This document shows, piece after piece, positions 8,657 through 62,263 of a DNA stretch of 64,000 bases; position 1 is the stretch's first letter; the number at the start of each line of letters is the position of its first letter. Position numbers and translations under genes: made by a program. This stretch comes from Parcubacteria bacterium RAAC4_OD1_1 (lineage in GTDB: Bacteria > Patescibacteriota > Minisyncoccia > Phycocordibacterales > UBA9973): the NCBI GenBank assembly GCA_000505065.1, contig AWSN01000001.1, positions 385 to 64,384 of the forward strand, given 5' to 3'. The notes beneath the pieces are model-generated. The model had not been told where the DNA came from. It did no database searches and worked only from the letters and a program-made list of their open reading frames with translations.

Positions 8657-12078
<3,422 letters not shown>

Positions 12079-12195
12079 ATTAGGAAATTTGGAAATATTA
12101 TATTTGCGTCCGTCGCCCGACAATTTATTTGTTTAGGGTTATAGCATTCAGTTTTCAGGTATTATCAAATACTTGGATGTAAATTCCATTATTGT

Positions 12196-12306
12196 GTCTT
12201 GGTGATTCGTCGCAGTGGCCACACCTCTTTCCATTCCGAACAGAGAAGTTAAGCACTGTAGAGCTGATGATACTCAATTTAGGGGAAAGTAAGCAGTCGC
12301 CAGGAC
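12196..12306 (+). rRNA. rrf: 5S ribosomal RNA
   Basis: ...CCACACCTCTTTCCATTCCGAACAGAGAAGTTAAGCACTGTAGAGCTGATGATACT...GGGGAAAGTAAGCAGTCGCCAGGAC. Terminal helix GTCTTGGTG/CGCCAGGAC. Confidence 0.85.
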
Positions 12307-36350: not shown

Positions 36351-36368
36351 ATAATATAATTGTATTTT

Positions 36369-45300: not shown

Positions 45301-47501
45301 CTGACGGTTCTACTTATTCAGAAAATATGAGTATTAATTCTTCTGGAAAAATTTTAATGGGTGCAACTTCCGACGCTTCAACATCTAGATTATATGTTTC
45401 AGGATCTACTACTTCAAATGGATCAACGACTGCTATTGCGGGTATCTTGGGAGATTATTCATTAAGTAATGGTGGAGGAGCAAGCTATGTACAAGTTGGT
45501 AATAGATTTGTTATCACAAATAGTCCTACTACAAATCCAAATACTGCTGTTGGAGAAATTGTAAGAATGGTAGACAATACAACTCTTGCAAATTTAGTTA
45601 GAGGTCTTGATATTACATCTAATGGAGGTACGAATACTGCAGGGACAAATACAGGACTCCGTGCAAGTGGTGCAACATTTGGTATCCAAGGTGTGACCAC
45701 AGCTCTCGCTGGAGGGGTGTCAGTACCTGCTGCTATTTATGGAGAAAGTACAGGAACAACCCAAGGAGATATCCTTAGACTTTATTCAGATACTGTGACA
45801 TCTGCTCCTTCTTTTGCAACATTCTACCATAATACAAGTACATTTACGGGGACTGGTCTCCTTATGGATTTTGCAACAGGTTCAGGATCGTTTACTGGAA
45901 ATTTTGCGGATTTTCAGAAGAATAATGCATCCTTATTTAAGGTCACCAATACGGGTGTTGTAAGTATGGGTCTTAGTGCTACTTCTTCTACAACAGCAGT
46001 ATGTTCTAGTTTGGCTACTTCTACTTCTCCAACTGCAGGAATTGCTTATGAAATCCGTGATTGTAGTGGAACCCCTGTCGCTGACTATGCCGAGATGTAC
46101 CCAGTTGAAGAAGATGTAACTTATGGAGATATAGTTATAGCAGGAAGTGAGATGATAAATACTTATGATACTACAAATGGAGAAATAGACTGGGATAAAG
46201 TAAAAGCAAAAATTCCTAAATTAAAGAAATCAAGTAAAGCTTATGATAGAAAGGTTGTGGGAGTGGTGTCAGATAACTATGGGGATTTTAGTTCGGTGGG
46301 TTATAACCTAAAAGATGAAGACAATCCTAAACCAATAGCGCTTAATGGGCGTGTGCCTGTAAAGATTTCTCCAAATTCTTCTTCTATACAAATAGGGGAT
46401 TATATTACTACTTCTAATGATATAGGTAAAGGAATGAAGGCTATAAAGGCAGGCTTTGTGATAGGTAAAGCACTTGAATCTTGGGATAATTCAAATCCTA
46501 CAGAAACAATTATGATATATGTAGAGCAGGGATATTATAATGGTGAATCTATTTCTGATTTTCTTGGAATTGTTATAAATGAATCTCCTGTTGATACTGA
46601 AAATATTGAAGTCACCGAAGATGATTCATCTATACTTATTTTAGACAAGCTTCTTTCTTATAAAGAAGAAATAGATACAGAAAATTTATCAGAAATATTT
46701 ATGGACAGACTTGTCGCTGGACTTGAAATAATAACTCCTCGTGTAGTTACAAATAACCTTTATATTAAAGAGGAATTTACAATAGATGGTTTATCTTTCT
46801 TTAATGGAGATTCCACTTTTGCAAATAGTGTCTTGTTTAAAGATATTGTTTCTTTTGAAGTTCCTCCATTATTCAATAAAGATACAGCTGGGTTTGCTAT
46901 TATAAGAGAAGGAGCCTCCCGTGTGAGAATCACTTTTGAAAACTCATATGTTTCTACACCAGTTGTGACATCTTCTGTTTCATATGAAGGAGAAGAAGGT
47001 AATAGCGAGATAGATACAAATTTATTCTTTGAAGAAGATATAAAATACGTTATAACAGAAAAAAGTCAGGACGGATTTACTATTGTCCTTAACAAAGAAG
47101 CTCCATTTGATGTAAAATTCTCTTGGATAGCACTCTCTGTTAAAGATTCAAATATTTTTGAAGGATTAATTGGAGGAATTGAATTTGATAATATATCAAA
47201 TGTAAATAATATTGAAGAACCTAATATATCTTTAGATGGAGAAGTTGCAGGAGAAATAATAACTGAGAATTTATCTGAAAATACTACAGGGGAAGTTTTA
47301 AATGAAGAAGTAATTATTGAAACGATAGAAGAATCATCAATGACAGAAGAACCTATGGTAAATATAAATGAGGAAGTTATAATAGAAGAAGGTGGAACAA
47401 TAAACGAAGTTGTACCTACTGAGACAGATACAAGTATAGATACAAGTACAGATACAAATACAAGTACAGATACTACTAGTCAAGAAGAAGTTGTAATTTA
47501 A
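36369..47501 (+). CDS. giant (about 3,710 aa) secreted/anchored repeat protein, tail-fiber/trimeric-adhesin-like
   Basis: N-terminal TM anchor. About 20 copies of G(N/S)VGIGTTxPxxxLxV. Four copies of a roughly 55-aa unit AVLHLKAGTATAGTAPLKLTSGVNLTTGEAGAMEYDG..LFFTPSxTTRET. 15-aa YadA-head/phage-fiber-like repeats (YSNTTGYANSAMG...) at about 44640-44900. Acidic C-terminus. The track start (36360) is TTG, so ATG 36369 is used. Confidence 0.8.
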   Translation: MFKKDNKLKEKISKILPRFSVHYVAYSVSFLFVVFSIIHIVSATTPNPGHPWSELGDGVFSVTYNQTAPRTYTFPDANATVLTTNAPVTVAQGGTGLTTIASGSILGANLANTLSAITSTTGTKVLTNTDGTISWENEPDSMVYPSAGIAVSTGSAWGTSITSSSLLISNISDEVGTGYLVFNDSPSFTTKITTPLILGGTSTTQDLSFQTTSGIGATGADMHFKVGNNGATEAMTILNNGYVGIGTTGPSDKLSVIGGNIAIDASSKIYNGSAADSAGIRFPSSVTDIAGYNGIIFRSSTVGIASQTERMRITNTGSVGIGTTAPTAVLHLKAGTATAGTAPLKLTSGVNLTTGEAGAMEYDGVELYFTPSGTTRETIAYLSDLTSGLTGYVPYTGATTNVDLGVHNLTVDTNTLFVDSVNHRVGVGTTTPTYLLTLKSPASNTISFSLEKTGATTTPALTAYEGSSTQGVMNFYDNGSAIGAKIQGYGDSYFNGGNVGIGTTSPFSPASINKVLNIYKDTGSVGLNLSVGLEDYEIANVAGDLWFIDDNSTKIVVKNTSGNLLINTTTDNGVDKLQVNGSLSTVGNVRVNKRTDAYRYVDIYSDNVYGYIQVKRGDTDAVRELILQPSGSSVGIGTTSPTAVLHLKAGTATAGTAPLKLTSGVNLTTGEAGAMEYDGTDLFFTPSTTRETVAFLSDITASAHNPVTLGTANGLSLSTQQLSLALASTSTTGALSSTDWNTFNNKQATLVSGTNIKTINSASLLGSGDIALQTPLVADTDYLTPGTASSTYALATNGTYYIEGTGTVAGTWLGSHPNITSYYDGLTVRYYTPIAGAATTTLNINSLGAKTIYYAGATKLTTHYPALSVITLTYSATQNGGSWFVQPFYADGNESYTVRWSSTLQAGAPIYDYKLVMFGASDGKVYPLTLETGTATTKTVSSVEFNPMSPVLYYGSTTDIALDGTSASYWYEGVTSANLHYTANQASGWTAYTPIYIKGTITSSGNFLLAGAGTVGGTAFLTQTLPTTEDGFVYMLLGHTYNTTTAFRLTTSHPIYEYKGGKLRPYTNEADTLDSVLVRGATTDETPTFSNATYSALFTGGNVGIGTATPGAKLHISSASDSDILLETTGTSTGARLRLKNSASEWYLYNNQANGILKFYAGADKWTLDTSGNVIQTGNLIVQGTGNTTIAGSVGIGTTTPTAVLHLKAGTATAGTAPLKLTSGINLTTPEAGAMEYNGTSLFFSPSTTRYQIPFATGTNTIFFTTTGATNVTLPTTGTLATTANIPTAANPSATIGLTAVNGSATTFMRSDSAPALSQAIVPTWTGIHTFSAIPAFNGGTSGSTAPFSVDSNTLVSNLNADLLDGHDTAYFQTALTNPVTGTGTLNYVPKFTATGTTIGNSLIFDNGTNVGIGTTTLTEKLTISGNIDLPATNNWRYIKNSATNGGLRIGTGNSSGVYTDGIEVSSGGSYVKLNHNTTVTGNLYTTGNVGIGTTAPLSALNVAGLTGINWVTAGNSYGLVTIGTQGTMGGALWVNTPSLNASNASGLGITGSYDASKVSVVNVNAYGVYAATYGSALAFSTSNGTALSEWMRIDKNGNVGIGTTNPSARLTIQTANASSTGGIRLLGITTPTDISYWGETELAMQYGGVYKNVINNNGVSYFNGGNVGIGTTSPTAALHLKAGTATVGTAPLKLTAGTNLTTAEAGAMEYDGTDLFFTPSTTRETVAFMSDLTSGYIPYTGGTSNVDLGAHNLTVDTNTLFVDSVNHRVGVGTTSPAYKLDVNGVMRLSTTTGDVFRLEGSTTNGYTDLLFTGNGNNNYIYSFGSSYTTNGRYVGGSQLIDATGSGGLGLAASATAGTIRFYTNANNERMRIDSSGNVGIGTTTPDGKLNISNGSMNTSRESVNHYRDVIHYSGAASVTGTMQITMPSTKLWSNTMMTVTIKGYNYSAHGAWEAVISGYNYSSTSQWYNYTAEIKGKAPFTSIRLASNGTSNVILLGTTTTVWVYPKIEVTDVITGYSSNTGWGEGWSITPIIDEAAIVNAVTPTIPYFLNNVGNLGIGTTTPGTKLDVVGGAIRTDNQLISTIVTGTSPLSVASTTLVSNLNADLLDGLHASSFVTSSSISGTQNYVSKFNAAGTGVVNSQIFDNGTNVGIGTTNPDSFLDVSGSASGGKSLRLRSGDSAGTPADSTQILFSYGGTNEYSHNIRTRHDSGAAANNAIDFYTWNYGVDTSTTTGTKHIMTLGGTGNVGIGTTSPQAKLHVSGNSFLGTYYANNTAITDAEVITAGENKILSNLTRGNLDITMTSVLNPAPDYGASLTFTTNAGNYGTGYYYVGGAIKTGRTSGANQNQAQYMSFYTNNGTSLSEKLRITHDGNVGIGTTSPESILHLSKSAAGTSGPILFLDNPSASTLGSSSDINFATWSGESATTPGAKISLVNTAAGSGANAFTFYTKNTSGVVAERVRFDSQGNVGIGTTGPGTKLDVVGGAIRTDNQLISTIATGTSPLSVASTTLVSNLNADLLDGISSTSLFNNMGQNHSAQTDFNSITDFGTRFVQGITNGPGTGSSQFYSLNLGLGNDYAFSSYAMQISIPRYTGTDKYISFRTREAGVWGTWSKISAGYADTAGNADTVDGLHASAFQTALTNPVTGTGTLNYIPKFTATGSTIGNSLIFDNGTNVGIGTATPNQQLEITKNFRLPATTYNAGSPYGIIYKDGNRFIHDFNYGNNGTVTTAGQNTFIGVNAGNLTMGSTATSVSHSSYNTAVGYVSLYSNTTGYANSAMGHYSLFANTTGYANSAQGVNSLYSNTGGYNNSAVGYYSLYSNTTGNHNSAMGVNSLYSNTTGWYNSALGYQAGRYIADGTTGRTTGNNGLYLGYNSKASADGTTNEIVIGYNTIGAGSNTAVYGNTSMTKHIFSNGNVGIGTTSPGAILSLGSSAAYQKLLVFESGNTKAGFGLTPTGDFRSFTPTGTTLSFGHMSTTDGSTYSENMSINSSGKILMGATSDASTSRLYVSGSTTSNGSTTAIAGILGDYSLSNGGGASYVQVGNRFVITNSPTTNPNTAVGEIVRMVDNTTLANLVRGLDITSNGGTNTAGTNTGLRASGATFGIQGVTTALAGGVSVPAAIYGESTGTTQGDILRLYSDTVTSAPSFATFYHNTSTFTGTGLLMDFATGSGSFTGNFADFQKNNASLFKVTNTGVVSMGLSATSSTTAVCSSLATSTSPTAGIAYEIRDCSGTPVADYAEMYPVEEDVTYGDIVIAGSEMINTYDTTNGEIDWDKVKAKIPKLKKSSKAYDRKVVGVVSDNYGDFSSVGYNLKDEDNPKPIALNGRVPVKISPNSSSIQIGDYITTSNDIGKGMKAIKAGFVIGKALESWDNSNPTETIMIYVEQGYYNGESISDFLGIVINESPVDTENIEVTEDDSSILILDKLLSYKEEIDTENLSEIFMDRLVAGLEIITPRVVTNNLYIKEEFTIDGLSFFNGDSTFANSVLFKDIVSFEVPPLFNKDTAGFAIIREGASRVRITFENSYVSTPVVTSSVSYEGEEGNSEIDTNLFFEEDIKYVITEKSQDGFTIVLNKEAPFDVKFSWIALSVKDSNIFEGLIGGIEFDNISNVNNIEEPNISLDGEVAGEIITENLSENTTGEVLNEEVIIETIEESSMTEEPMVNINEEVIIEEGGTINEVVPTETDTSIDTSTDTNTSTDTTSQEEVVI

Positions 47502-47558
47502 TTATTAGAATAATTTATATAATTCCTATTTTGATGTTGGTATAGTATAATCATAAAT

Positions 47559-50500
47559 ATGTTTTATCAGAATAAAAAATTAAAAAGAAAAATATTTAAA
47601 AATATAAAAATTGGTATTTTTGTATTTTCTTTTATGTTTACTTCTTTGTTTTCTTATTTACCTAATTTAAATACAAATGAAGTAAAAGTTGCCGAAGCTT
47701 ATGTAGGTACAAGAGTAAAAACTGTTGAATTCTTTGCTGGGCAGTATGCTTCTAGTACACTTGCTAATGCTGGAGTACAGAATAATTTTGAAGTACAGAA
47801 TGTAGAAATATCAGAAACTAATGTAGATATTATAAATTCTTATATTGAATTTTCTGCTCAAGTAGGGGCCAATGCTTCTACTACCATTACAGAAGGACTT
47901 CTTTATTTTAGTGCTTGTGCTGGTACTTCTTGTACACCTGCTACTCCTGCTATGGTTATGAACACAGCAGGTTTAGGGACAAGTACAGGAGAGTCTCAAA
48001 CAATAAGACTTCGAACTAATATTGCTACTGCTGGTACTGATACGGATATTTTTTCTACTTTCACAGGAGGGGCTTTTTCTTTTCAAGTTGGGTATTGTAT
48101 AGATGGAGCATCAGGAACTGATGGATCGACTTGTAATGGGACAGTTGCAGCTAGTATCCAAAGTGCTAATGCTAAACTTGTGACAACTTATACTTATGAT
48201 GACACATCTACATATCAAACTAATACAGTTATTTATCCACTTGAGTCTAACACCACAGGGCCTGTCGGGTCAAAGACTATAGTCCAAGCATCTTGTACTA
48301 TGGACTCAAACTGTCCTAAATTTAGTTATAATACGAACATCCCAGAATTATCATCTCAAGTATCTCAATTTTTTCATACTCAATTCTTTGGTGGATCAGT
48401 CTCAACGACAACTGATCATCAATTTCAAGCACAAGTAGATGGTAATACTTCTGGAAGTACGATGTATTTTGAGCAAGCACTTTCTGATAATGGGGGAGCC
48501 ATGGATTATCTTGTCAGTGGGCTTGATGGGTATGAGAACAATACAGCTCAACAGCTTGAAACTCGTGTGAATGGCAATGCTTATGTGCTTGGTGGAGAAA
48601 ATTATGTGACATACAAATACCCCAATAGCGCAGGAGTAAAAACAAAAACAATAGTGCTCCCAGTAGGAGAGGTGCAGACAGTCGGGTCTATTACAAAGTC
48701 ATCTCTTGTGGGTCCAACTGTAAAATTTCCTGAAACTGGAGTAAGTATCAAAAAGGCTTGGTTTAGAGTACACACTAGTGCTGGAGGGCAGACTACAGCA
48801 TCTAATTTAAATATTACAACAAAAGTAGGTTCTAATACAGAATCTTTAGCAACGGCGTACTCTATCGGCGGTACGCTTGAGGGTGTTTCTGATGATGGGT
48901 ATTTTATTCATATGATTCCTTCATCAGATTATTCCCACTTAGAAACTGCCAATATAGATACAGGAATTCCTGTCCAAATGTCGGCTCAATGGTCTACTCC
49001 ATATGGAGCAGTGTCTGGTGAACTTGTGATCACATATACTTATACAGGAGATACAAATGGATTTAATACTACACAAAGACTTTTTGCAGGTCAAAGTACA
49101 ACAACAGCATCAACAACATTTTCTGCTCCTACTGGGGCTGTTGGAGGAATTGTGGATCCATATATATATCAAGGTATAGGGAATGCATCTATCCTTGGGG
49201 TTTCTCTTAAAATGGATGGTAAAGATACATCCGCAACTGCTAATCAAACAGTGGGTGCTAATATGTCAGTTTACCCTAATGCCTGTACAAGTTCAGATAC
49301 TTTTAATTCAACCACACTTACAGATACACAAATCACAAAAGTTTCTCTCTTTAAAGAGATAACAGGTGTTGTGACAAACAACAATACAACGACTTACACA
49401 CCTTGTTATAATAGTAGTCAAGCAACTATCTTTAATGGAACAGTAGCCATAACTACGATGGTAGATTTTAGAGAAGTTGTTGCTTCTGGTGGTACTGAAA
49501 CTACAATAAATGTAGGAGGTATTGATTATAAGGTTCACACATTTCTTTCATCTGGAACTTTTACTGTCACTAGTGGTGGTGGTATTGAGTATTTGGTTGT
49601 TGGAGGAGGGGGAGGTACTGAAAATAATAATGCTGCTGTTGGTGGTGGTGGAGCTGGTGGTGTATTAACAGGATCAACTTCAACAGATGCAGGTTCTTAT
49701 TCTATAACTGTAGGAAGTGGTGGTCTTGGGTATTTTGGTGGAACACCAGGACAAGGGCAACAAGGAGGATCTAGTAGTATTGGTTCTTTAGTTGTTGCGA
49801 CAGGTGGAGGAGCATCCAATAGTTTACCAAACGGGGGATCAGGTGCTGGAGGTACTGCTTATTCATCTTCATATGGTCCTGGAGGTACTGGAATTGCAGG
49901 ACAAGGATATCCTGGTGGTGCAGCTTCGGCAACACGTAGAGCCGGTGGAGGAGGTGGTGCTTCACAAGCTGGAGGAAATTCAGGAATAAATAACTATGGT
50001 GGTGATGGTGGTGATGGAATACAAAGTAGTATAAATGGAACTGCTACATACTATGGTGGTGGAGGTGGTGGTGCTGGATATACAACTAACGGTCAGGGTG
50101 ATGGTGGTTTGGGTGGTGGTGCAAATGGATCATATGGTGCACCAACTTCAAATCAAAATGGAACTCCTAATACTGGTGGTGGAGGAGGTGGTTCAAAACT
50201 TTTTAGTTCTACTGTTAGATCTGGTTCTGGTGGTTCAGGTATTGTCATAATAAGGTATCCTATGAGTACAGAACCTTCTTTTTCTCAACTAGATTATAGA
50301 TTTTTTGAGAATGAAGATGGAAATTTTGTTTATTCATCTTTAGGAAGTCAAAATACTAATGTCTCACTTTCTCAATCTGGGGAAGACTTTAGATTAAGAA
50401 TGCTTTTAAAAATAGAAAATTATAATATGACCGTTGAAAAGAGTCACTTTAAATTACAATTTTCAGAGAAGTCTGGTTCTTGTGATACTTCTTTTGTTGG

Positions 50501-51293
50501 TGAAAATTATATGGATGTATCTTATGATACTGATATTTCTTTTAAAGATAATTTTTATTCAAATGATGGAGTTGCTTTTACAAGCAATGCTCTTGATCCG
50601 ACAGTCGCAGGAACTATCGTAAATCAATCATATGTAGAATCAAATCCTTCAACTAATTTATCTGTTATTAATATTGGTCAATATGGTATGTGGGATTTCT
50701 CTTTGTATGATAAAAGTGTAAGCAATAGTAGCTCTTATTGTTTAAGAGTTGTTAAAGCAAATAATGAACTTTTAGATACTTATTCTTTTATCCCAGAAAT
50801 AACGACAGCTGTATATAGAAGCCGTGGAGGCGGAATCAGGCATATTGCAAATCCTTTATGTATGGATGGTATAGATAATGATTCAGATACATATATAGAT
50901 GGAAATGATTCGAATTGTCATATTAATGGGGTTTTAAGTAATAGTTATATTACTGATTGGAATTCTGAGACTGTTTCCCCTGTAATAGCAGAAGGAGGAA
51001 CTGTAGATGGAGGAGAAGAAGTTACTTTACCAGCTTGTAGTGATTGGATAGATAATGATTCTGATACTGATATAGATAATCTTGACCCAGGTTGCCACTT
51101 AGATGGTAATATAAATAATACTTACATTCCAGAACACAATTCAGAAACTGTCGCTCCTGTTTCAAATACAGGAGGAACTTCCGGAGATGATTCTGGTGAT
51201 CTTGGTTATTTAAATAATAAATTAATATTTCAATTTACTTCTTTAAAGAATCTCAAAAATTTATTACTCGCGATGGTTTTAAGACCCTTTTAA
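47559..51293 (+). CDS. 1244-aa N-anchored Thr/Ser/Gly-rich surface protein with a roughly 230-aa poly-Gly-rich block and two C-terminal Cys-flanked DxDxD (Ca-binding-like) modules
   Basis: Gly block ...GGGGGTENNNAAVGGGGAGG...SGSGGSGIVIIRY (about 49590-50260). Repeated C(M/S)D(G/W)IDNDSDT(Y/D)ID..D..CH(I/L)(N/D)G...NSETV(S/A)PV at about 50850-51170. Confidence 0.7.
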   Translation: MFYQNKKLKRKIFKNIKIGIFVFSFMFTSLFSYLPNLNTNEVKVAEAYVGTRVKTVEFFAGQYASSTLANAGVQNNFEVQNVEISETNVDIINSYIEFSAQVGANASTTITEGLLYFSACAGTSCTPATPAMVMNTAGLGTSTGESQTIRLRTNIATAGTDTDIFSTFTGGAFSFQVGYCIDGASGTDGSTCNGTVAASIQSANAKLVTTYTYDDTSTYQTNTVIYPLESNTTGPVGSKTIVQASCTMDSNCPKFSYNTNIPELSSQVSQFFHTQFFGGSVSTTTDHQFQAQVDGNTSGSTMYFEQALSDNGGAMDYLVSGLDGYENNTAQQLETRVNGNAYVLGGENYVTYKYPNSAGVKTKTIVLPVGEVQTVGSITKSSLVGPTVKFPETGVSIKKAWFRVHTSAGGQTTASNLNITTKVGSNTESLATAYSIGGTLEGVSDDGYFIHMIPSSDYSHLETANIDTGIPVQMSAQWSTPYGAVSGELVITYTYTGDTNGFNTTQRLFAGQSTTTASTTFSAPTGAVGGIVDPYIYQGIGNASILGVSLKMDGKDTSATANQTVGANMSVYPNACTSSDTFNSTTLTDTQITKVSLFKEITGVVTNNNTTTYTPCYNSSQATIFNGTVAITTMVDFREVVASGGTETTINVGGIDYKVHTFLSSGTFTVTSGGGIEYLVVGGGGGTENNNAAVGGGGAGGVLTGSTSTDAGSYSITVGSGGLGYFGGTPGQGQQGGSSSIGSLVVATGGGASNSLPNGGSGAGGTAYSSSYGPGGTGIAGQGYPGGAASATRRAGGGGGASQAGGNSGINNYGGDGGDGIQSSINGTATYYGGGGGGAGYTTNGQGDGGLGGGANGSYGAPTSNQNGTPNTGGGGGGSKLFSSTVRSGSGGSGIVIIRYPMSTEPSFSQLDYRFFENEDGNFVYSSLGSQNTNVSLSQSGEDFRLRMLLKIENYNMTVEKSHFKLQFSEKSGSCDTSFVGENYMDVSYDTDISFKDNFYSNDGVAFTSNALDPTVAGTIVNQSYVESNPSTNLSVINIGQYGMWDFSLYDKSVSNSSSYCLRVVKANNELLDTYSFIPEITTAVYRSRGGGIRHIANPLCMDGIDNDSDTYIDGNDSNCHINGVLSNSYITDWNSETVSPVIAEGGTVDGGEEVTLPACSDWIDNDSDTDIDNLDPGCHLDGNINNTYIPEHNSETVAPVSNTGGTSGDDSGDLGYLNNKLIFQFTSLKNLKNLLLAMVLRPF

Positions 51294-51324: not shown

Positions 51325-51747
51325 ATGAAAAGAAATAAATTAATAAATTTTCTTTTAGTTTTTGTTATCATTGGGGTTCTTTCTCTGGGAGGATATTTTT
51401 ATTATAAATTAAATCAATTAGAAAAAGATACAAATATAAGTGGAGACAAAGAGATTAAGAGTCTTATCTTAAAAGTAGAAAGATTATATTTAATTCCAAA
51501 TGATGAAGTCCCTACGATTGCCACAGTGACAGATCCTAAAATACTTAAAGACAAGTCTTTTTTTACTCTAGCAGAAATAGGGGATAAGGTCCTTATTTAT
51601 ACAAAGTTTGGTAAGGCTATACTCTATAGACCTAGTATAAATAAAATTGTTGAAGTTGTTTCTGTTGGTATTGATAATAAATTAGATTTTAGTAAAAGTG
51701 AGAACGTTGAAAATCAAGAAGAAATAGATAATAAAGATGATGAATAA
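51325..51747 (+). CDS. small N-anchored hypothetical protein (140 aa)
   Basis: Single N-terminal TM, acidic C-terminus. Confidence 0.45.
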   Translation: MKRNKLINFLLVFVIIGVLSLGGYFYYKLNQLEKDTNISGDKEIKSLILKVERLYLIPNDEVPTIATVTDPKILKDKSFFTLAEIGDKVLIYTKFGKAILYRPSINKIVEVVSVGIDNKLDFSKSENVENQEEIDNKDDE

Positions 51748-52723
51748 TTTATTTAAAAATATTTTTATAAAAATTTCTGTATTTTTAGTTTTATTTTTAC
51801 CACTTCATTCTTTTGCAGTTCTTTCTTGCTCTATTACTACTTCTGCTTTGTGTTCAGGGACGGTACTTCTTCGTATGTCAAGTAGTGACAATGCTCACGC
51901 TGAGCTCCCAAGTGAATCTACGATAGTTTATGATAATAATGTGGTTTGTTGTACAGGAGTGCCACAACTTTCAAATTCTTGTGCTGAATCTAATAAAGAA
52001 ATTTTTGCAAAATTATCTGGAGTGACGAATGCTCACGTAGAAGAAAATACACAATCAAATTATGTAAACAATGCTTGCATAGCTAGTACTTATGCTGGAG
52101 ATGAGATCACAGTAGGGTACCAGCCAAATGATTGTACTGGGTACGACACAATACTCTTTTCAATGTCTAATACTCCTACGAATTCTCAAGTAGGATCTCC
52201 GTCTTCATATAATAATAAAGTTTGTGCAAAAGTTTTTACGCAATCTATAACATTTAATATAAGTAATTATTCTGCTGGATTTGGGTATCTTTCTCCTTCG
52301 GGGATAAGATATGCTACTTCTGATGGGTTGGGTAGTTCTGTGGAAACAGAAGCTTACAATGTGGATATTAGCACCAATGCTTCTTCTGGTTATACTTTGT
52401 ATGTAAGAGGAGATACTTTAAAGAATGGATCTTATACTATAGATCCTATAGGTGGAACCAACATAACACCATCTCCTGGGTCAAATGCTTTTGGATTAAG
52501 AGCTGTAGCGACAGGGGGCAATGGTATAGTTTCTTCACCTTATGATGGGACTGGTTTTGCTTATGATGCTACAAATGCTACTCCCTCTGAGATAGGTTTT
52601 GCTACTTCGGGGAATGGTTTAAATACAGATTATTCTATTAGGTCTGTGGCCACTATTGATGATATTTTAAACTATGGTCTTTATTCAACTAACCTTACTT
52701 ATATAGTTGTCCCCAACTTTTAA
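51737..52723 (+). CDS. secreted Cys/Ser/Thr-rich hypothetical protein; contains a half REP-1 copy in frame (51901-51917)
   Basis: Signal peptide. TGAGCTCCCAAGTGAAT encodes AELPSE. Confidence 0.5.
   Translation: MMNNLFKNIFIKISVFLVLFLPLHSFAVLSCSITTSALCSGTVLLRMSSSDNAHAELPSESTIVYDNNVVCCTGVPQLSNSCAESNKEIFAKLSGVTNAHVEENTQSNYVNNACIASTYAGDEITVGYQPNDCTGYDTILFSMSNTPTNSQVGSPSSYNNKVCAKVFTQSITFNISNYSAGFGYLSPSGIRYATSDGLGSSVETEAYNVDISTNASSGYTLYVRGDTLKNGSYTIDPIGGTNITPSPGSNAFGLRAVATGGNGIVSSPYDGTGFAYDATNATPSEIGFATSGNGLNTDYSIRSVATIDDILNYGLYSTNLTYIVVPNF
51901..51917. repeat. partial REP-1 (TGAGCTCCCAAGTGAAT), identical to the right half plus flank of copy 4
   Basis: 17/17 match to 33539-33555. Confidence 0.6.
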
Positions 52724-52820: not shown

Positions 52821-53948
52821 ATGATTAAAAAAATTGTTAGTCTCGTAGTTATGACTTCTTTTGTTTTAACTATGACAGGAGTTTTTCCTCTTACCTTGAT
52901 GGCTGCATCTATATCTTCTTCTAAGGCAACATTTGGTAGGTTGAAGGCCTCAACTCCTTCTGATTCTGTTATTATTCAGTTTGTTTCTCCAACGGGGATA
53001 CAGACAGGTGGTGCAGATACCATCTCTTTAACTTTTTCCTCCGATTTTACAGTAGCTCCTGAAGCTGTTGCTAATTTTGATGTAGGACTTGGAAATAGTG
53101 GAGTATGTTCTTCTGCTACATATACAGATGAAATAATTTCTTTGACTGCTTCTGCTACTGACTGGGGAGTTGACGTGACGGGCAATGTTATAACTTTTAG
53201 TCCAGAGACTGATGATGTTTTAACTGCTGGATATTGTATTAGGATTGAAATGGGGACGGCTGCTACAACAGGTGGGGCAGGCTCGGCAAGTACAATAACA
53301 AACGGACTAGCTGACGATGACGATACTATCACAATAGCTGGTGGTTTTGGAGATACTGGAGTTATGACTGTAGATATAGTAGATGATGATCAAGTGACAG
53401 TTACAGCAACAGTGAATCAAACAATGACTTTTGATCTAGATACTTCAGTTACAGATAGTGAGACAGATGCACCTTATACTGTACCACTTGGAGTTCTCTC
53501 TTCTTCATCTGTTAAAGTTTCAGGATCTACCGATTCTGTAAATATGATAATTGCAGAAGGTAATACAAATGCTTCAGGAGGTATGAATGTCACAGTTAAA
53601 AATGCTAATGGGGCAAATGGTTTAGTTTCAACTTCTACTCCAGCTGATAGAATAGAAAGTGCAACAGGCACAATGATAGCAGGGACAGAGAATTATGGTC
53701 TTTGCGTAGCTTCTGCTTCTTTGGCTGGTTTTACTAGAGCAACTGCTTATAATACAAATTGTGCATTAAACTCAGAGACAAATGCCATAATAGGTCTTAC
53801 TACAACCACTGCAGATTTGCTAACATCTTCTGCTCCTATATCAAGTGCTCATGCTGAAATAGTAGTAAACGCTGCTATTGCTGGAGCAACACCTGCACAT
53901 ACAGATTATACAGATACACTTACATTTATCGCTACTGCAAGTTATTAA
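52821..53948 (+). CDS. secreted Thr/Ser/Ala-rich hypothetical surface protein (375 aa)
   Basis: Signal peptide MIKKIVSLVVMTSFVLTMTGVFPLTLMAA. Low complexity. Confidence 0.5.
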   Translation: MIKKIVSLVVMTSFVLTMTGVFPLTLMAASISSSKATFGRLKASTPSDSVIIQFVSPTGIQTGGADTISLTFSSDFTVAPEAVANFDVGLGNSGVCSSATYTDEIISLTASATDWGVDVTGNVITFSPETDDVLTAGYCIRIEMGTAATTGGAGSASTITNGLADDDDTITIAGGFGDTGVMTVDIVDDDQVTVTATVNQTMTFDLDTSVTDSETDAPYTVPLGVLSSSSVKVSGSTDSVNMIIAEGNTNASGGMNVTVKNANGANGLVSTSTPADRIESATGTMIAGTENYGLCVASASLAGFTRATAYNTNCALNSETNAIIGLTTTTADLLTSSAPISSAHAEIVVNAAIAGATPAHTDYTDTLTFIATASY

Positions 53949-53964
53949 TCGCAAGAGATTTATT

Positions 53965-54990
53965 ATGTCAAAAAAATTAATTTTAAGGTTGCTAATACTT
54001 GTTTTTGTCCTTGCCTTAGGTGGTATTTCGAAGTCTCAAGCTATGACCATAACTCCTGTTAGATACGAACTTTCTGGTAATAAAGGTGATACAGTTTCCA
54101 AAGAAATAACCTTGATTAATGATGATGATGCTCCTGTTGTTTATTATTCTTCTTTTGCAAATTTTGAAGCTCAGGGTGAAAGTGGTAGTGCTGCTTTCAT
54201 AGAGAGACCCACAGAAGGCATAGGGACTTGGATGAGGACAGAAAGATCTGTCACTGTGTATCCTGGTGAACAAAAAACAATTGACTTTAGTATAGATATA
54301 CCAAATGATGCAGAATCAGGGGGTCACTTTGGTGTTATTTTTTGGGGGACATCTCCAGAAGATGTTGAAGACAATAAACAGCTTGCTGTTAGTGCCAAGA
54401 CCGGTCTTATCGTTTTGCTTTCTGTAAATGGAGATGTAAAAGAGGCTGGGGGACTTATTGAATTTGATACAAAAGATAGTAAATTTTGGTACAATACACT
54501 TCCTGTAAACTTTTATTATAGATTTAGAAATGATGGAGGTGACAGAATTAAACCAGAAGGGAAAATAAAAATTAAAAGTTTTTTATTTATTCCTGTTAAA
54601 AAGATAGATGCTAATCCAATGGATGGTAATATCTTACCAAATAGTACTAGAAAGTTTTCTATTGATTGGGTGAAATACACAAGACCAAAAGATAATGAAC
54701 CTCGTGAAGGATTAGTTGGTTTGTTCTTTGACAAAGTTGTTTATCAATGGAAAAATTTTGCTCTTGGTATTTATTCTGCTAAGTTAGATATAGCTTACGG
54801 TACACAAAATGAAAAAGCTGAAAAGGTTGCCTATTTCTTTGTTTTTCCTTGGCAACTATTTATATGTTTAATAATAATAATTATCATTATTTTTATTGGT
54901 GGTAAAAAATTAATCAAGAAATACAATAGCTATATAATAAATAAAGCTCATTCTCAAATGCAACTACCTACAAATGAGAACCATGTTTAG
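53965..54990 (+). CDS. cell-surface protein with signal peptide and C-terminal TM anchor (DUF916-like architecture)
   Basis: MSKKLILRLLILVFVLALGGISKSQA signal. C-terminal ...FFVFPWQLFICLIIIIIIIFIGGKKLIKK. The track start at 53878 is a TTG extension. Confidence 0.45.
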   Translation: MSKKLILRLLILVFVLALGGISKSQAMTITPVRYELSGNKGDTVSKEITLINDDDAPVVYYSSFANFEAQGESGSAAFIERPTEGIGTWMRTERSVTVYPGEQKTIDFSIDIPNDAESGGHFGVIFWGTSPEDVEDNKQLAVSAKTGLIVLLSVNGDVKEAGGLIEFDTKDSKFWYNTLPVNFYYRFRNDGGDRIKPEGKIKIKSFLFIPVKKIDANPMDGNILPNSTRKFSIDWVKYTRPKDNEPREGLVGLFFDKVVYQWKNFALGIYSAKLDIAYGTQNEKAEKVAYFFVFPWQLFICLIIIIIIIFIGGKKLIKKYNSYIINKAHSQMQLPTNENHV

Positions 54991-55876
54991 CAAGATTTCA
55001 ATTAAGAAAATAACTATCTTATTTGTTTTAGTTTTTTTTTCGTGTCAAATTTTTGCTGATGATATAATTTCAAATATTTCTATTTCTGCTATTGTAAATC
55101 CAGTAGATGGAGGAGGTGGTGGAGGTGGCGGTGGCGGAGGAGGCATACATATACCCACAGTAGTTAATTTTTCTGGTATGGCTTACCCAATGTCTCGAGT
55201 TTTTATTTTAAAAGATGGTAAAATGGCGGTTAGCACAATAGCAGATATTAATGCGAATTTTTCTGTTTCTATTTCAAATCTTTCTACAGACACTTATAAT
55301 TTTTCTGTTTATGGAGAAGATACAAATGGAAGAAAATCATCTTTTTTTACATTTCCAGTATATATAACATCTGGGACGACTGTAAATATTGGTAATATTT
55401 TTCTTTCTCCAACTATAGATATTGATAAAATAGAAGTTAAAAAAGGTGACAATTTGGCTATCTTTGGTCAAAGTGTACCCAATAGTGAAATTACTATTTT
55501 GATCTCTTCTGGAGTAGAATATTTTTTTAATGTAGCATCAAATAATTTTGGAGCATATTTATACAATCTAGATACTTCTATTTTAGAATTAGGAAAATAT
55601 CAAACTAAATCCAAATCAACTATTTTTAATCAGATAAGTCCTTATTCTAGTCCACTTTCATTTATTGTTGGGCATATAAATAGAAAGAATGAATTACCAA
55701 ATTGTTCTTCTTTGCGAGGTGATTTAAATTGTGATAATCACGTGAATCTTATAGATTTTTCTATTATGGCGTATTGGTATAGAAAAGAAAATCCATTACC
55801 AAGAGTAGATCTTAGTAACGATGGCAGGATAACTTTAGTTGATTTTTCTATAATGGCATTTAATTGGACTGGTTAG
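54974..55876 (+). CDS. secreted protein with poly-Gly linker and C-terminal dockerin-like domain
   Basis: Signal peptide. G12 run (55115-55150). C-terminal duplicated Ca-loop/helix segments DLNCDNHVNLIDFSIMAYWY ... DLSNDGRITLVDFSIMAFNW fit the dockerin DxNxDGx(I/V)xxxDxxxh repeat pair. Confidence 0.55.
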   Translation: MRTMFSKISIKKITILFVLVFFSCQIFADDIISNISISAIVNPVDGGGGGGGGGGGGIHIPTVVNFSGMAYPMSRVFILKDGKMAVSTIADINANFSVSISNLSTDTYNFSVYGEDTNGRKSSFFTFPVYITSGTTVNIGNIFLSPTIDIDKIEVKKGDNLAIFGQSVPNSEITILISSGVEYFFNVASNNFGAYLYNLDTSILELGKYQTKSKSTIFNQISPYSSPLSFIVGHINRKNELPNCSSLRGDLNCDNHVNLIDFSIMAYWYRKENPLPRVDLSNDGRITLVDFSIMAFNWTG

Positions 55877-55900
55877 TAAATTAGCAAAATAATTAAAATT

Positions 55901-56779
55901 ATGAAAAAAATATTTATATTATCTATAATAATATCATTAGGGATCTGTCTTAAAATAGAAGCTTCTTCTTTATTTTTAGATTTATCAAAAGAAGAAGTTT
56001 CTGTGGGTGAACAATTTTATGTTGATATTGTGCTAGATACACAAGGTAAAAGTATAAATGGTATTAATTCTAGTTTTTCGTTTAATAATGATTTATTTAG
56101 ATTAGTTAGGATAGAGGATTCTAAATCAATGATAAACTATTGGATAGATAAACCAAGTGATAATAATTCTGGCAGGATTGATTTTTCTGGTATAATAGTA
56201 AATGGATTTGATGGAGTGATAGATCCTTTTAATTTAGAAAATAAACTTCCAGGAATTATTTTAAGAATAGTTTTTGAGCCTTTATCTTCTGGAACTCATT
56301 CGTTTGATCTTTATGAAGCATCGGCTACATTAAATGATGGTAATGGGACGATTCTTGATTTAGATGATAATCATTTGTCTATTAATATTTTAGATTCAAT
56401 AAAAGATATTTCTATTCCAGTAGAATCAAGCACTCCTCAAATCTCATTTGAAATTATTAAAGAAAAAGATCTTTATGATAATAAATATGTTATAATTTTC
56501 AATGCGACAGACGAAAGTTCTGGGATTCGTGAAGTTTTAATAAAAGAAGGTTTTAGGAAATGGAAGCAAGTTGAGAGTCCGTATTTATTGAAAGATCAAT
56601 CAAGAAAGAGCAAGATAGTTTTAAAAGCAATCAATTTAACTGGTGGCTCTATGGAGCTTAAGATTGATCCAGTATATAAGAATAATATATCGATTTATTT
56701 ATTATCTATATTTGTCATTCTTATTTTGTTTTTAGTTTTTATAAAATATGTCAAGAATAAAAAACAACAGCCTTTATAA
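55901..56779 (+). CDS. membrane-anchored protein with one cohesin-like domain
   Basis: Signal peptide. About 140-aa module VSVGEQFYVDIVLDTQGKSINGINSSFSFNNDLFRLVRIEDS...SGRIDFSGIIVNGFDG...GIILRIVFEPLSSGTHSFDL...ATLNDGNGT resembles type-I cohesin. C-terminal TM ISIYLLSIFVILILFLVFIKYV. Confidence 0.5.
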   Translation: MKKIFILSIIISLGICLKIEASSLFLDLSKEEVSVGEQFYVDIVLDTQGKSINGINSSFSFNNDLFRLVRIEDSKSMINYWIDKPSDNNSGRIDFSGIIVNGFDGVIDPFNLENKLPGIILRIVFEPLSSGTHSFDLYEASATLNDGNGTILDLDDNHLSINILDSIKDISIPVESSTPQISFEIIKEKDLYDNKYVIIFNATDESSGIREVLIKEGFRKWKQVESPYLLKDQSRKSKIVLKAINLTGGSMELKIDPVYKNNISIYLLSIFVILILFLVFIKYVKNKKQQPL

Positions 56780-58784
56780 AGTATTTATATCTTCATTTTT
56801 CGTAGCCTTATTCTTTTTGAGTTACAATCAAGCTTTTTCTGCTGATATAAGAATGGTGTCTACTTTTCATAATTATAAGGTGGGTGATACTATAAAAATA
56901 AATGTAAATGTAAATAGTAAGACTTCTGTTAATGCAGTTTCTGGTGTTATAAATTTTCCGACAGATAAAGTCTCACTTTCTAGTGTTTCTAAAGATGACT
57001 CTATTATAAGTTTGTGGGCCAAAGATCCTGTTTTTTTAAATGATAATGATGGAAGTATCTCATTTGAGGGGATTATTTTAAATGGATTTATAGGTAAAGA
57101 AGGACAAATTTTAACTCTTAATTTTAAAGCTAAAAAAGAGGGAACGGTCAATATTTATTTTAATTATGCTTCTGTTTTAGCTAATGATGGTAATGGATCT
57201 GAAGTTGTTGAAGAAAAAAAATCAATAACTATAAACATAAAAGAAACATTTATTGTGCTTGGTGAAAAATTATCAGAAGCACAAATAGAAGAAGGATCTA
57301 AAGATGAAATACTTAAAATAGTTGAAATACCTAAAGAAGCTATTTTGAAAATAAGAAAAATTGAAGAGATCAACAAAATTCCAGTTAACAATCTTGTTAT
57401 TTTATTTGGTTTGTTGGTTATCCTTATTTTATTTTTAATAATAATATATGGGATATATTATATTTCTAAATTTAAAAAGTATATAAGAAAAAGGTTTTTT
57501 ATTTTTATATTTCTGTTTTCTTTACTATCACCATTACCATCTTTTGCTAATGATATAATAAATCTAAATGCCCCTTCTCTTTTACCAAGGTCAGAATTAT
57601 TTATTTCTCCTCGAACTGGTGATTTTATCGTTGGCTCTACTTTTGATGCTCCCATATATATAAATACTCTTGGAAATGATGTAAATGCTATTAGTGTCAA
57701 AATAAAATTTGACCCGAGAAAACTTTCTATTATAAGACCATCGGGAGGAAAATCTATTTTTGGTATTTGGGTAGAACCTCCTAGTTATGATAATCAAAAA
57801 GGGACAGCTAGCTTGGTAGGGGTTATCCCTGATGGTATAGTTTCTAGTTCTGGTCTTGTGGCTACTATTACTTTCAAAGTTTTATCTTCTGGGGATACGA
57901 ATGTATTTATATCAAATGATTCGAGTGCTAATATGAATGATGGATTAGGGACTCCAGTACGTTTGAGTTTGGGTAATGCATATTATAATTTTACACCAAA
58001 GATTCCAGATGGAGTTCTTGTCTTTTCCGATACACATCCAATGGAAGGTCATTGGTATAATAACAATTCTCCAATTATAAGATGGGAAAATAGTGATACG
58101 ACAGAAGGGTTTAATGTAATTCTTGATAATAATCCTAATACCATTCCTTCGACATCTATACTAACAACAAATTCATCAATTTCATATGAAAATTTAAAAG
58201 ATGGAGTGTGGTATTTGCATGTTAGAGAAAAGAATAAAGAAGTATGGGGGAATCCTTCTCATTTTCAAATAAAAATAGATACAAACAAACCCGCATTATT
58301 TAAACCAGAAGCTAGTATTTTAGAAGAGATTTCTGGGACAAGAAAGTATTCACTTTCTTTTGTCACTACCGATTCATTATCAAATATAAGCCATTATGAA
58401 GTTGGAACCATTGAAAAGAAAAATGAAATAGAGATTGCTTCACCAGTTTTTATTGAAACCGAGAGTCCTTATATTGTACCAAACACTACAGAAGATAGTA
58501 TGAGAGTAATAGTTCGAGCTTTTGACTTTGCTGGTAATATGCAAGAAGCATATGTAGATCTTTATCCAGGATATACTTTATTTAAAAGTTTTAAAAAATA
58601 TGGAGCATATTTACTTGGATTTTTAGTAATATTTATGCTATTTGAGCTTCTATTCCATTATCTTTTTGGGCACCATATTTTGTCTCACGTAAAGAAAGCC
58701 TATTATTACTTCAAGGGAATGTCTGATTATCCCAAAGAAGAAGAAAAACCGACAGAAGAATCTGTAAATAATATTGATAAATAA
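56748..58784 (+). CDS. membrane-anchored protein with two cohesin-like domains and a C-terminal TM segment
   Basis: Modules at about aa 30-150 (YKVGDTIKINVNVNSKTSVNAVSGVINFPTDKVSL...GSISFEGIILNGF...GQILTLNFKAKKEGT) and about aa 270-400 (GDFIVGSTFDAPIYINTLGNDVNAISVKIKFDPRKLSI...GTASLVGVIPDG...ATITFKVLSSGDT). Internal and C-terminal TM segments. Confidence 0.5.
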   Translation: MSRIKNNSLYKVFISSFFVALFFLSYNQAFSADIRMVSTFHNYKVGDTIKINVNVNSKTSVNAVSGVINFPTDKVSLSSVSKDDSIISLWAKDPVFLNDNDGSISFEGIILNGFIGKEGQILTLNFKAKKEGTVNIYFNYASVLANDGNGSEVVEEKKSITINIKETFIVLGEKLSEAQIEEGSKDEILKIVEIPKEAILKIRKIEEINKIPVNNLVILFGLLVILILFLIIIYGIYYISKFKKYIRKRFFIFIFLFSLLSPLPSFANDIINLNAPSLLPRSELFISPRTGDFIVGSTFDAPIYINTLGNDVNAISVKIKFDPRKLSIIRPSGGKSIFGIWVEPPSYDNQKGTASLVGVIPDGIVSSSGLVATITFKVLSSGDTNVFISNDSSANMNDGLGTPVRLSLGNAYYNFTPKIPDGVLVFSDTHPMEGHWYNNNSPIIRWENSDTTEGFNVILDNNPNTIPSTSILTTNSSISYENLKDGVWYLHVREKNKEVWGNPSHFQIKIDTNKPALFKPEASILEEISGTRKYSLSFVTTDSLSNISHYEVGTIEKKNEIEIASPVFIETESPYIVPNTTEDSMRVIVRAFDFAGNMQEAYVDLYPGYTLFKSFKKYGAYLLGFLVIFMLFELLFHYLFGHHILSHVKKAYYYFKGMSDYPKEEEKPTEESVNNIDK

Positions 58785-61579: not shown

Positions 61580-62263
61580 ATGAGTTTTAGGAATGAAAAA
61601 ATATTACCAGATGAATATTGTCATATTTATAATCGTGGTAATGGTAAAAGTAAAATATTTTTAGACAAAGAAGATTATGATCGTTTTATTAAGATTCTTT
61701 TTATTTGTAATTCAAAAAATAAATTTGTTTTTCGTGAATCTATTATAAAAAGTAAAATAAATGCATGGGATTTTGAAAGGGGGAATAGATTGGTAGATAT
61801 TGGAGCTTGGGTATTGATGCCAAACCATTTTCATATTTTATTGATTTCTTCTAGCCATAGGCAAGGCCTATGGCAAAAAGATTTAAATCCTATTTCTATA
61901 TTTATGCAAAAAGTTTCAACTGCTTATGCTATGTATTTTAATAAAAAATATAATAGAACAGGTTCGTTATTTGAAGGAAAATTTAAATTAAAAAATATCC
62001 ATAAGGAAAATTATTTAGAATATTTGTTTTCATATATACACTTAAATCCAATAAAATTAATACAAAAAGATTGGAAAGAAAATGGAATAAAAAATAAAGA
62101 TAAAGCATTAGAATATTTAAATAAGTTTAAATATTCTAGTTATTTAGATTATAAAAATCCTAATAGGACAGAAAGTAAAATATTAAATAAAGAATTTTTT
62201 CCAGAATCTTTTGATAATATAAATAATAAAGAACTAATTAATATATTTACTTCATATGTATAA
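61580..62263 (+). CDS. REP-associated tyrosine transposase (IS200-like Y1/HUH family), RAYT-2
   Basis: Paralogue of 32865..33527: YCHIYNRGNGKSKIFLDKEDYDRFIKIL..., ...GAWVLMPNHFHILL (HUH), ...NRTGSLFEGKFKLKNIHKENYLEYLFSYIHLNP... Confidence 0.65.
   Translation: MSFRNEKILPDEYCHIYNRGNGKSKIFLDKEDYDRFIKILFICNSKNKFVFRESIIKSKINAWDFERGNRLVDIGAWVLMPNHFHILLISSSHRQGLWQKDLNPISIFMQKVSTAYAMYFNKKYNRTGSLFEGKFKLKNIHKENYLEYLFSYIHLNPIKLIQKDWKENGIKNKDKALEYLNKFKYSSYLDYKNPNRTESKILNKEFFPESFDNINNKELINIFTSYV
61852..61875. repeat. REP-2 copy c, in frame inside RAYT-2 (TAGCCATAGGCAAGGCCTATGGCA encodes SSHRQGLWQ)
   Basis: Inverted orientation (loop CAAGG). The paralogue RAYT-1 is about 9 aa shorter here. Confidence 0.75.

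Follow-up and report, generated by a model that had tools for sequence, protein, structure and literature searches.

Cohesins and dockerins are already known from outside the cellulosome, and some of the proteins of the candidate phyla radiation (CPR) that concern us here have been annotated automatically as 'cohesin domain-containing protein'. Here we describe, in a stretch of 64,000 nucleotides from Parcubacteria bacterium RAAC4_OD1_1 (GenBank contig AWSN01000001.1, positions 385 to 64,384; hereafter the window), a trio of genes, P1, P2 and P3, in which a secreted protein ending in a dockerin is encoded beside two membrane proteins that carry cohesins, and we compare it with the closest described systems. 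In cellulosomes, anchoring scaffoldins are attached to the Gram-positive wall by S-layer homology (SLH) domains and recruit scaffoldins that are laden with enzymes. In Clostridium perfringens, cohesin and dockerin modules sit on secreted enzymes, which they join into toxin or enzyme complexes. The Clostridium thermocellum scaffoldins OlpA, OlpC and SdbA (3ul4, 4dh2 and 2bm3) present surface cohesins that catch a dockerin partner, and P2 matches their folds; in contrast to cellulosome scaffoldins, the anchors of the present locus are transmembrane (TM) helices, the ligand is a single one, and there is neither a carbohydrate-binding module (CBM) nor an enzyme. The cohesins of C. perfringens glycoside hydrolases (GH84C, 2w1n; GH33, 2vo8), whose use is non-cellulosic, resemble P2 in that the cohesin is followed by an FN3-like domain, whereas the present locus is free of enzymes, holds its cohesins in the membrane by TM helices and encodes a single dedicated dockerin protein in one operon with them. 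The cohesin of Archaeoglobus fulgidus (2xdh) is likewise non-cellulosomal and comes from a non-cellulolytic prokaryote, and P2 matches it with a template modelling score (TM-score) of 0.73; it differs in that it belongs to another domain of life and does not come from a conserved operon in which TM-anchored cohesins neighbour pilus genes.

A second described system bears on the neighbourhood of the trio. The Pam pilus is known from cryo-electron microscopy of Ca. Mycosynbacter amalyticus filaments (Troman et al. 2026, bioRxiv 10.64898/2026.03.03.709456), in which each pilin has a β-sandwich at its N-terminus and an open immunoglobulin (Ig)-like domain at its C-terminus, joined by a linker strand, and the linker strand of one pilin completes the C-terminal domain of its neighbour. 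In the same paper PamR, in which a strand at the N-terminus is followed by two FnIII domains and lastly by a TM helix, is the proposed terminator and anchor of the filament; Pam homologues are placed mainly in Saccharimonadia and Microgenomatia, and the text mentions neither cohesin nor dockerin. P1 as modelled has the layout of PamR, a strand followed by two Ig- or FnIII-like domains, with a dockerin replacing the TM helix, the two proteins being compared by layout and not by sequence. P1 also lies beside genes for Pam-type pilins and for a TM-anchored chaperone-like protein, which may be likened to PamC/PamD by layout only (signal peptide, two β-domains, C-terminal TM helix). While PamR has a C-terminal TM helix of its own, P1 has a dockerin in that place and leaves the TM helices to the separate P2 and P3, and it is for this reason that we call the trio a variant of the Pam system; a single-chain anchor of the PamR type was not recognised among the open reading frames (ORFs) of the surface island in which the trio lies. 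A precedent for termination by strand donation is PapH, a strand donor that is unable to accept, which ends P pilus polymerisation at the cell-proximal end. P1 is like PapH in having a donor-like strand and complete Ig domains, and may have a comparable role; unlike in chaperone-usher pili, there is no usher and no outer membrane, and anchoring is proposed to proceed via cohesin and dockerin.

On the evidence set out below, the trio probably anchors surface structures at the cell membrane, either a pilus of a newly described kind or other modules. We give about an even chance to the more specific proposal that it is a dedicated, non-cellulosomal anchoring module of Patescibacteria in which P1 caps or terminates a Pam-type pilus and docks on P2 and P3. 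It is put forward tentatively, as somewhat short of even, that a Paceibacteria-type Pam pilus is ended and tethered to the membrane through a non-covalent P1-P2/P3 cohesin-dockerin joint, and that the same socket is reused elsewhere for other modules.

An earlier note on this DNA, made from the letters alone, had claimed three consecutive co-oriented genes in a CPR-like genome, the first encoding a protein with a duplicated dockerin segment at its C-terminus and the next two encoding membrane-anchored proteins with one and two cohesin-like modules, respectively. Three ORFs are present where it placed them, co-oriented and closely packed, and its view of the genome as CPR-like is right, since NCBI lists the proteins under Candidatus Nomurabacteria bacterium, on contigs that reach 693 kb; its assignment of the domains also holds, as is detailed in the paragraphs that follow. 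The trio consists of:

54974-55876, + strand: P1, ORF of 300 aa, secreted dockerin-bearing adaptor protein
55901-56779, + strand: P2, ORF of 292 aa, membrane-anchored protein with a single cohesin
56748-58784, + strand: P3, ORF of 678 aa, membrane protein with two cohesins, a fusion of P3N and P3C

The DNA of the trio is identical in independent assemblies. As a scan for promoters and terminators returned no more than the shuffle level (59 sites against 59.4 expected), operon structure is judged from gene overlaps and short gaps alone. Domain identity was assessed against Pfam PF00963 (Cohesin, cutoff 24.1 bits) and PF00404 (Dockerin_1, cutoff 22.9 bits), and by structure models from AlphaFold2 (AF2), for which confidence is given as the predicted local distance difference test (pLDDT). 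P1 comprises the following elements:

54974-55057, + strand: signal peptide, aa 1-28, a hydrophobic segment with the site ...QIFA|DD and a predicted helix at 9-22
55070-55102, + strand: orphan β-strand SNISISAIVNP, candidate donor strand, aa 33-43; AF2 strand at 36-41, low pLDDT
55109-55144, + strand: poly-glycine tether of 12 Gly, aa 46-57, read from the sequence and conserved in the family
55157-55678, + strand: two tandem Ig/FN3-like β-sandwich domains, aa 62-143 and 150-235, AF2 pLDDT 90-97
55703-55873, + strand: dockerin module, aa 244-300, with the Pfam PF00404 match at aa 249-294
55721-55756 and 55808-55843, + strand: the two calcium loops of the dockerin, located by regular expression

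The C-terminus of P1 is a genuine dockerin. Two EF-hand-like loops of 12 residues, DLNCDNHVNLID and DLSNDGRITLVD, are found there, with a DFSIMA helix after each, and both segments conform to the pattern of D at position 1, N, D or S at 3, D at 5 and D at 12, then a helix; a six-frame search of the window with this regular expression found no other paired calcium loops of the dockerin type. Residues 249-294 score 23.1 bits against Pfam Dockerin_1, a marginal pass of the 22.9-bit cutoff (Big_6 also matches P1), and a precomputed PF00404 match is carried by 80 of the 120 P1 homologues listed. A profile of the P1 family searched against PDB found 2y3n_B as its best dockerin (E = 5.5e-5, both loops aligned), followed by 5nrm_B, 1daq and 2mte at E ~0.01. 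Within an alignment of 30 P1 sequences the residues D250, D254, N258, D261, D279, D283 and D290 are invariant, as are the DFS helix starts and two Trp residues. The AF2 model of P1 has a mean pLDDT of 85, with the C-terminus modelled as a two-helix module (helices 259-267 and 288-299, pLDDT 85-92). Foldseek matches of the body of the protein are to tandem Ig/FN3 stalks, such as those of Bap and of an ice-binding adhesin; a full-length search is dominated by this Ig/FN3 body and is uninformative on the 57-residue dockerin. As a separate observation, C244, just before the dockerin, and C253, at position 4 of loop 1 and at least 90% conserved, recur across the P1 family (window 55703-55732); the pair could be a disulfide staple, which would be atypical of cellulosomal dockerins.

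P2 begins with a signal peptide and ends with one TM helix, and its further elements are:

55961-56389, + strand: cohesin module, aa 21-163, coordinates from the family hidden Markov model (HMM)
56432-56668, + strand: membrane-proximal FN3-like domain, aa 178-256, AF2 strands over 180-255, also present in P3C (hhalign)
56684-56755, + strand: C-terminal TM helix, hydropathy 3.15, AF2 helix 263-287

The P2 module is predicted to fold as a cohesin. The AF2 model (pLDDT 93.2) is of a cohesin β-sandwich, and the top 44 PDB matches of this model in Foldseek are all solved cohesins, of which the best is 2w1n, the cohesin-FN3 double module of C. perfringens GH84C, at E = 3e-11; for the single module the fold matches include 2vo8 (TM-score 0.77), 5nrk_A (0.73) and 2xdh (0.73). 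At the level of sequence the similarity is fainter: a sub-threshold Pfam Cohesin alignment of P2 spans model positions 4-138 of 139, the family profile finds weak cohesin matches among PDB sequences (E = 0.024), and no precomputed PF00963 match is carried by any of the 120 P2 homologues listed. Comparison of family profiles nonetheless makes the P2 family an unambiguous paralogue of the P3C cohesin family, the two aligning through the cohesin module with an hhalign probability of 100% and E = 2.8e-44.

P3 contains three hydrophobic helices and two cohesins, arranged as follows:

56841-57242, + strand: cohesin module 1, aa 32-165, family HMM 136 bits
57381-57554, + strand: TM helix 1, basic loop KFKKYIRKR and TM helix 2, helices at aa 212-238 and 249-269, from hydropathy and sequence
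57591-57989, + strand: cohesin module 2, aa 282-414, family HMM 125 bits, best Pfam stretch 295-399
58023-58583, + strand: inserted β-domain and membrane-proximal FN3-like domain, aa ~426-612, from hhalign, with a weak DUF7195 match
58605-58682, + strand: C-terminal TM helix, from hydropathy

Here the Pfam Cohesin match is strong, at 60.8 bits over two stretches against the cutoff of 24.1, and 103 of the 120 P3 homologues listed carry PF00963. Compared with P2 by hhalign, P3C has an additional domain, after which comes the membrane-proximal domain that the two have in common, and each cohesin of P2 and P3 is followed by an FN3-like spacer and then a TM helix. P3 is a lineage-specific fusion of P3N and P3C. 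Nearly all of its homologues are of ~430 aa and span just the C-terminal ~60% of P3, and in the closest relatives (loci L003, L005 and L006) P3C and a P2-like P3N are encoded by two distinct ORFs with an overlap of 4 nt. The fusion is in frame, with its junction near 57462-57494, and the same fusion is found in independent assemblies. TM helix 2, which follows the short basic loop, corresponds to the former signal peptide of P3C; because this signal peptide has been turned into a second TM helix, both P3 cohesins would be extracellular in a consistent topology.

The arrangement is widely conserved. Database relatives of P1 form 1392 protein clusters at 50-70% identity. A single-sequence scan of the genome collection with P3C came back empty, the patterns being too specific, and an alignment of P1 was used instead, which in a scan of one genome per species gave at least 545 confirmed matches; among these are records from Nomura-, Kaiser-, Magasanik-, Komeili-, Vogel-, Colwell-, Uhr- and Torokbacteria, among others. 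For locus statistics we used 80 related loci, 1.25 Mb in all. P2 directly follows P1 in 78 of these, P3N and/or P3C come next in nearly all, and the order P1-P2-P3 is kept in 78-80 of the 80, an arrangement far beyond chance; paired dockerin loops are confined to ORFs of the P1 family, and cohesin modules to those of P2, P3N and P3C. The number of cohesins per locus is two in 56 loci, three in 18 and one in six. A search of the whole library with the 58-residue dockerin retrieved 1667 cluster representatives, and the best 150 of these comprise 132 proteins that match once, at 53-76% identity and almost always at the very C-terminal end of a P1-like protein of 44-652 aa, and 18 low-identity tandem-repeat proteins. 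What varies among P1 orthologues is the N-terminus, where swappable modules precede the poly-Gly (an FN3 domain, a Cys-rich CGDG...C module or acidic DNDGD repeats; examples are L009 2361-3689, L034 9216-10244 and L043 9533-10720), while the Ig-Ig-dockerin body is 50-60% identical whatever the N-terminal module. A phage origin of the trio was considered and rejected, PHROGs having no match to P1, P2 or P3.

With regard to the cellulosome, whose marks are multiple dockerin-bearing enzymes and a CBM-bearing scaffoldin with SLH or sortase anchoring, we find one dockerin in the window and TM helices as the anchors. Searches with Pfam and NCBIfam gave no enzyme, glycoside hydrolase, CBM, SLH or LPXTG-type match in the island and no catalytic domain in P1. 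The trio is thus a dedicated, non-cellulosomal module of one dockerin and two to three cohesins. The earlier note had likened it to a minimal cellulosome-style docking system, and this stands in so far as a dockerin ligand does lie beside membrane cohesins, but not as regards a plug-and-play scaffold, given the one dockerin and the lack of enzymes or CBMs. It had also placed the genes in a non-cellulolytic surface island downstream of giant adhesin-like genes, which agrees with the absence of enzymes and CBMs and with the 3713-aa ORF and the 1244-aa Gly-rich protein found upstream. It did not notice the Pam-type pilin and chaperone-like genes that directly precede P1, nor the pilin-like donor-strand motif in P1 itself.

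As to whether the two domains pair with one another, conservation across the cohesin paralogues peaks on predicted strands β3 (N53, 100%), β5 (W81 and P85) and β6 (F95, G97 and G102), and the β8-β9 loop NDGxGT is also among the most conserved positions. Conservation was placed on strands only, with strand numbers derived from the order of strands in DSSP, and the fit of the conserved strands to the canonical 8-3-6-5 binding sheet is only suggestive.

The genes upstream of P1 suggest a link to a pilus. They are, from P1 outwards:

53959-54990, + strand: chaperone-like protein of 343 aa, with a signal peptide, two β-domains and a C-terminal TM helix, overlapping the start of P1 by 17 nt
52821-53948, + strand: Pam-type pilin p375, assigned by family match, with the linker strand VTVTATVNQ in mid-protein
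51737-52723, + strand: Pam-type pilin of 328 aa, NCBIfam CPR_Pam_pilin_C at 59.1 bits, cutoff 55
51325-51747, + strand: small membrane protein p140, often upstream of P1 or of pilins
36360-51293, + strand: the 3713-aa ORF, with no Pfam match, and the 1244-aa Gly-rich protein, with Gly_rich_2

CPR_Pam_pilin_C is matched by 30 of 33 members of the pilin family (best E = 1.2e-44), p375 and its positional equivalents included, the window copy of p375 itself falling under the threshold. The chaperone-like protein and P1 are encoded in one tight string of overlapping or abutting genes, and across the related loci a chaperone-like gene is immediately 5' of P1 in 44 of 80, and 36 of the 80 contain pilin genes. 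Members of the chaperone-like family match Pfam WxLIP_PGBD (11 of 36) and fn3_5 (14 of 36), and the best PDB match of the family is EfmWxLIP1 (9i25) at E = 0.025, so that its sequence similarity to WxL-interacting proteins may be called weak but recurrent. The latter have the same layout of two domains and a TM helix and a strand-inserting action (Hassan et al. 2023, PMC10599100). The likeness to the Firmicutes proteins (WxLIP, DUF916-DUF3324-TM; PMC10599100), which lies in the two Ig-like domains and the C-terminal TM helix, concerns this neighbour and not the trio, and in contrast to WxL clusters no WxL-domain proteins were detected here and the similarity is under curated cutoffs.

Between its signal peptide and poly-Gly, P1 has the stretch SNISISAIVNP, for which the family consensus is VTISAQVN. 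This strand shares the motif V-x-[VI]-[ST]-A-x-V with the linker (donor) strands of the pilins, and the motif was counted by ORF family and compared with shuffled sequence:

pilin328 family: 28 of 58 ORFs against 4.0 by shuffling, mostly at relative position ~0.52, the linker between N-terminal and C-terminal domains
p375 family: 5 of 5 ORFs against 0 by shuffling, relative position ~0.52
P1: 19 of 81 ORFs against 2.2 by shuffling, 17 of them directly after the signal peptide
all other ORFs: 36 of 3321 against 34.8 by shuffling, not enriched

P1 proteins were further divided by their N-terminus, and for loci whose upstream sequence extends to 3 kb or more the genes upstream were tallied:

orphan strand and poly-Gly: chaperone gene in 22 of 23, pilin gene in 21 of 23
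extra N-terminal domain (FN3 or other): chaperone gene in 4 of 18, pilin gene in 4 of 18
Cys-rich module: chaperone gene in 13 of 22, pilin gene in 9 of 22

The co-occurrence differs between the orphan-strand and the extra-domain forms with a Fisher p = 1.1e-6, and two of the four positive extra-domain loci (L016 and L052) resemble, on inspection of the sequence, misfiled orphan-strand forms.

Taken together with the layout of PamR, these results allow a mechanism to be postulated. P2 and P3 would sit in the cytoplasmic membrane by their C-terminal (in P3 also internal) TM helices, with their cohesins held above FN3-like spacers on the outer face of the membrane. P1 would be exported by Sec, and its calcium-binding dockerin would plug into the cohesins of P2 and P3, such that P1 is kept non-covalently at the cell surface. 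The membrane-anchored chaperone-like protein may then hand over the N-terminal strand of P1 to the last Pam-type pilin, whose open C-terminal domain the strand would fill; because P1 is without an acceptor groove it would stop growth of the donor-strand-exchange pilus, and would in this manner serve both as its end and as its tether to the membrane. We infer strand donation by P1 and its role as a terminator. The job so assigned to P1 is the one proposed for the single-chain PamR in Saccharimonadia, and in lineages whose P1 has an FN3 or Cys-rich module, the socket would serve to display that module instead.

Several observations weigh against this mechanism and must be set beside it. The Pfam match of the P1 dockerin is marginal (23.1 against 22.9 bits), P2 misses the Pfam Cohesin cutoff (15.6 against 24.1 bits), just 7 of 45 members of its family match Pfam Cohesin at E <= 0.01, and no NCBIfam model matches the chaperone-like family. 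Binding of the P1 dockerin to the cohesins is inferred from synteny and from analogy with the domain families. The strict motif is present in only 14 of the 23 orphan-strand P1s that have 3 kb or more of sequence upstream, and the N-terminal strand of P1 is modelled by AF2 at low confidence and might fold back in cis on the protein's own Ig domain. The Cys-rich class of P1 occurs with a chaperone gene in 13 of 22 loci, yet the motif is absent within the 75-residue search window, and therefore the pilus link is not the whole story; likewise the trio is present in loci without detectable pilins, and therefore pilus anchoring cannot be its sole role.

These points lend themselves to an alternative in which the trio serves generic surface display, P1 being a stalk or adhesin held on the cohesins of P2 and P3 with its N-terminal strand in cis, and the adjacency of pilin genes reflecting the clustering of surface genes. 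Such a reading would accommodate the many loci in which the trio lacks detectable pilin and chaperone genes and P1 has FN3 or Cys-rich N-terminal modules, the resemblance of the P1 body to the adhesin stalks of Bap and the ice-binding adhesin, and the low prediction confidence of the N-terminal strand. We regard it as plausible but as the less likely reading, as orphan-strand P1 tracks the chaperone (22/23) and the pilins (21/23; Fisher p as above, 1.1e-6), P1 shares with the pilins a linker-strand motif that is unenriched in other ORFs, and the start of P1 overlaps the chaperone-like gene by 17 nt. A further alternative accepts the domains as real and denies that they pair with each other: the dockerin would be a calcium-dependent stabiliser or would bind host glycans or some other partner, and the cohesins would bind a host surface or S-layer. 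Dockerin-like modules are indeed widespread outside cellulosomes, and Wang et al. (2023, PMC10633639) speculated on glycan targeting by an essential dockerin-domain protein of Southlakia, which has no adjacent cohesin gene. Set against this are the occurrence of one dockerin gene beside two to three cohesin genes in 78-80 of 80 loci, the finding of neither domain elsewhere in those loci, the extreme conservation of the dockerin, and the conserved positions that the cohesin paralogues share on strands of the canonical binding sheet, and we consider the absence of pairing to be rather unlikely. Finally, a minimal cellulosome-like scaffold gathering several dockerin-bearing enzymes is effectively excluded, for while cohesin and dockerin define cellulosomes and three cohesins would allow multivalency, P1 is the single dockerin gene in the window with none beyond the P1 family in related loci, this dockerin subtype is confined to P1-like proteins, P1 is without a catalytic domain, and no CBM, SLH or glycoside hydrolase match was obtained in the island.

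The proposal that the trio anchors a pilus at the membrane has implications beyond the present genome. CPR bacteria, or Patescibacteria, are thought to live attached to hosts, and the building and retention of their surface structures are poorly known. The trio is among the better conserved CPR surface modules traced, with P1 50-70% identical across many candidate phyla, and roles can be assigned through it to several 'hypothetical proteins' of hundreds of metagenome-assembled genomes. If the proposal is true, it supplies the membrane anchor for the Pam pilus in Paceibacteria, by an anchoring principle unlike that of ushers, sortases or single-chain TM anchors; the cohesin-dockerin interaction would gain a structural role as the socket of a pilus or appendage, far from cellulose degradation, and ultra-small bacteria would provide a compact, genetically linked and probably high-affinity protein pair that can be tested in vitro. 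In the searchable literature we found no account of a tri-gene TM-cohesin module, of its breadth in Patescibacteria or of its link to a Pam-type pilus; work on dockerin or cohesin in Parcubacteria, Patescibacteria, Saccharibacteria or CPR was limited to surveys of carbohydrate-active enzymes and the remark on Southlakia. The Southlakia protein, SEML1_0315, was considered as an orthologue of P1 and rejected, being a stand-alone protein of 927 aa with no cohesin neighbours.

A number of lesser observations concern the neighbours of the trio. In the chaperone-like family (an example of a relative is L026 8845-9855) the first domain closes with a strand, LLSVNGEVKEAGG, similar to the donor motif, with matches in 6 of 45 ORFs against 0.8 expected; by analogy with the G1 strand of PapD-type chaperones, this could be the protein's own complementing strand. 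In many loci where neither pilin nor chaperone genes were detected, homologues of p140 lie directly 5' of P1, and in L066 and L071 they occur in 2-3 tandem copies. The 1244-aa protein (47559-51293) matches Gly_rich_2 and the phage family phrog_2295 (E = 1.3e-53) and has acidic double-disulfide repeats at its end; it may correspond to the 'tail fibre-like protein' noted beside pam operons in the Pam pilus paper. The 3713-aa ORF (36360-47501, TTG start) has no Pfam match at E <= 0.01, and pieces of its homologues are found upstream of pilin genes in 15 of the 80 loci.

Elsewhere in the window, the match to 23S rRNA (8651-12086) spans 3436 nt against a model of 2925 positions and therefore contains ~500 nt of insertions; no Rfam intron family reached its threshold. 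A 5S rRNA comes next (12198-12305), while for 16S rRNA the window gave no match. Two paralogues resembling IS200/Y1 transposases (REP-associated tyrosine transposase-like), at 32865-33527 and 61580-62263, are 39% identical (E = 4e-31), and the pair brackets the segment that runs from pheST through the surface island to gyrB and a NUDIX gene.

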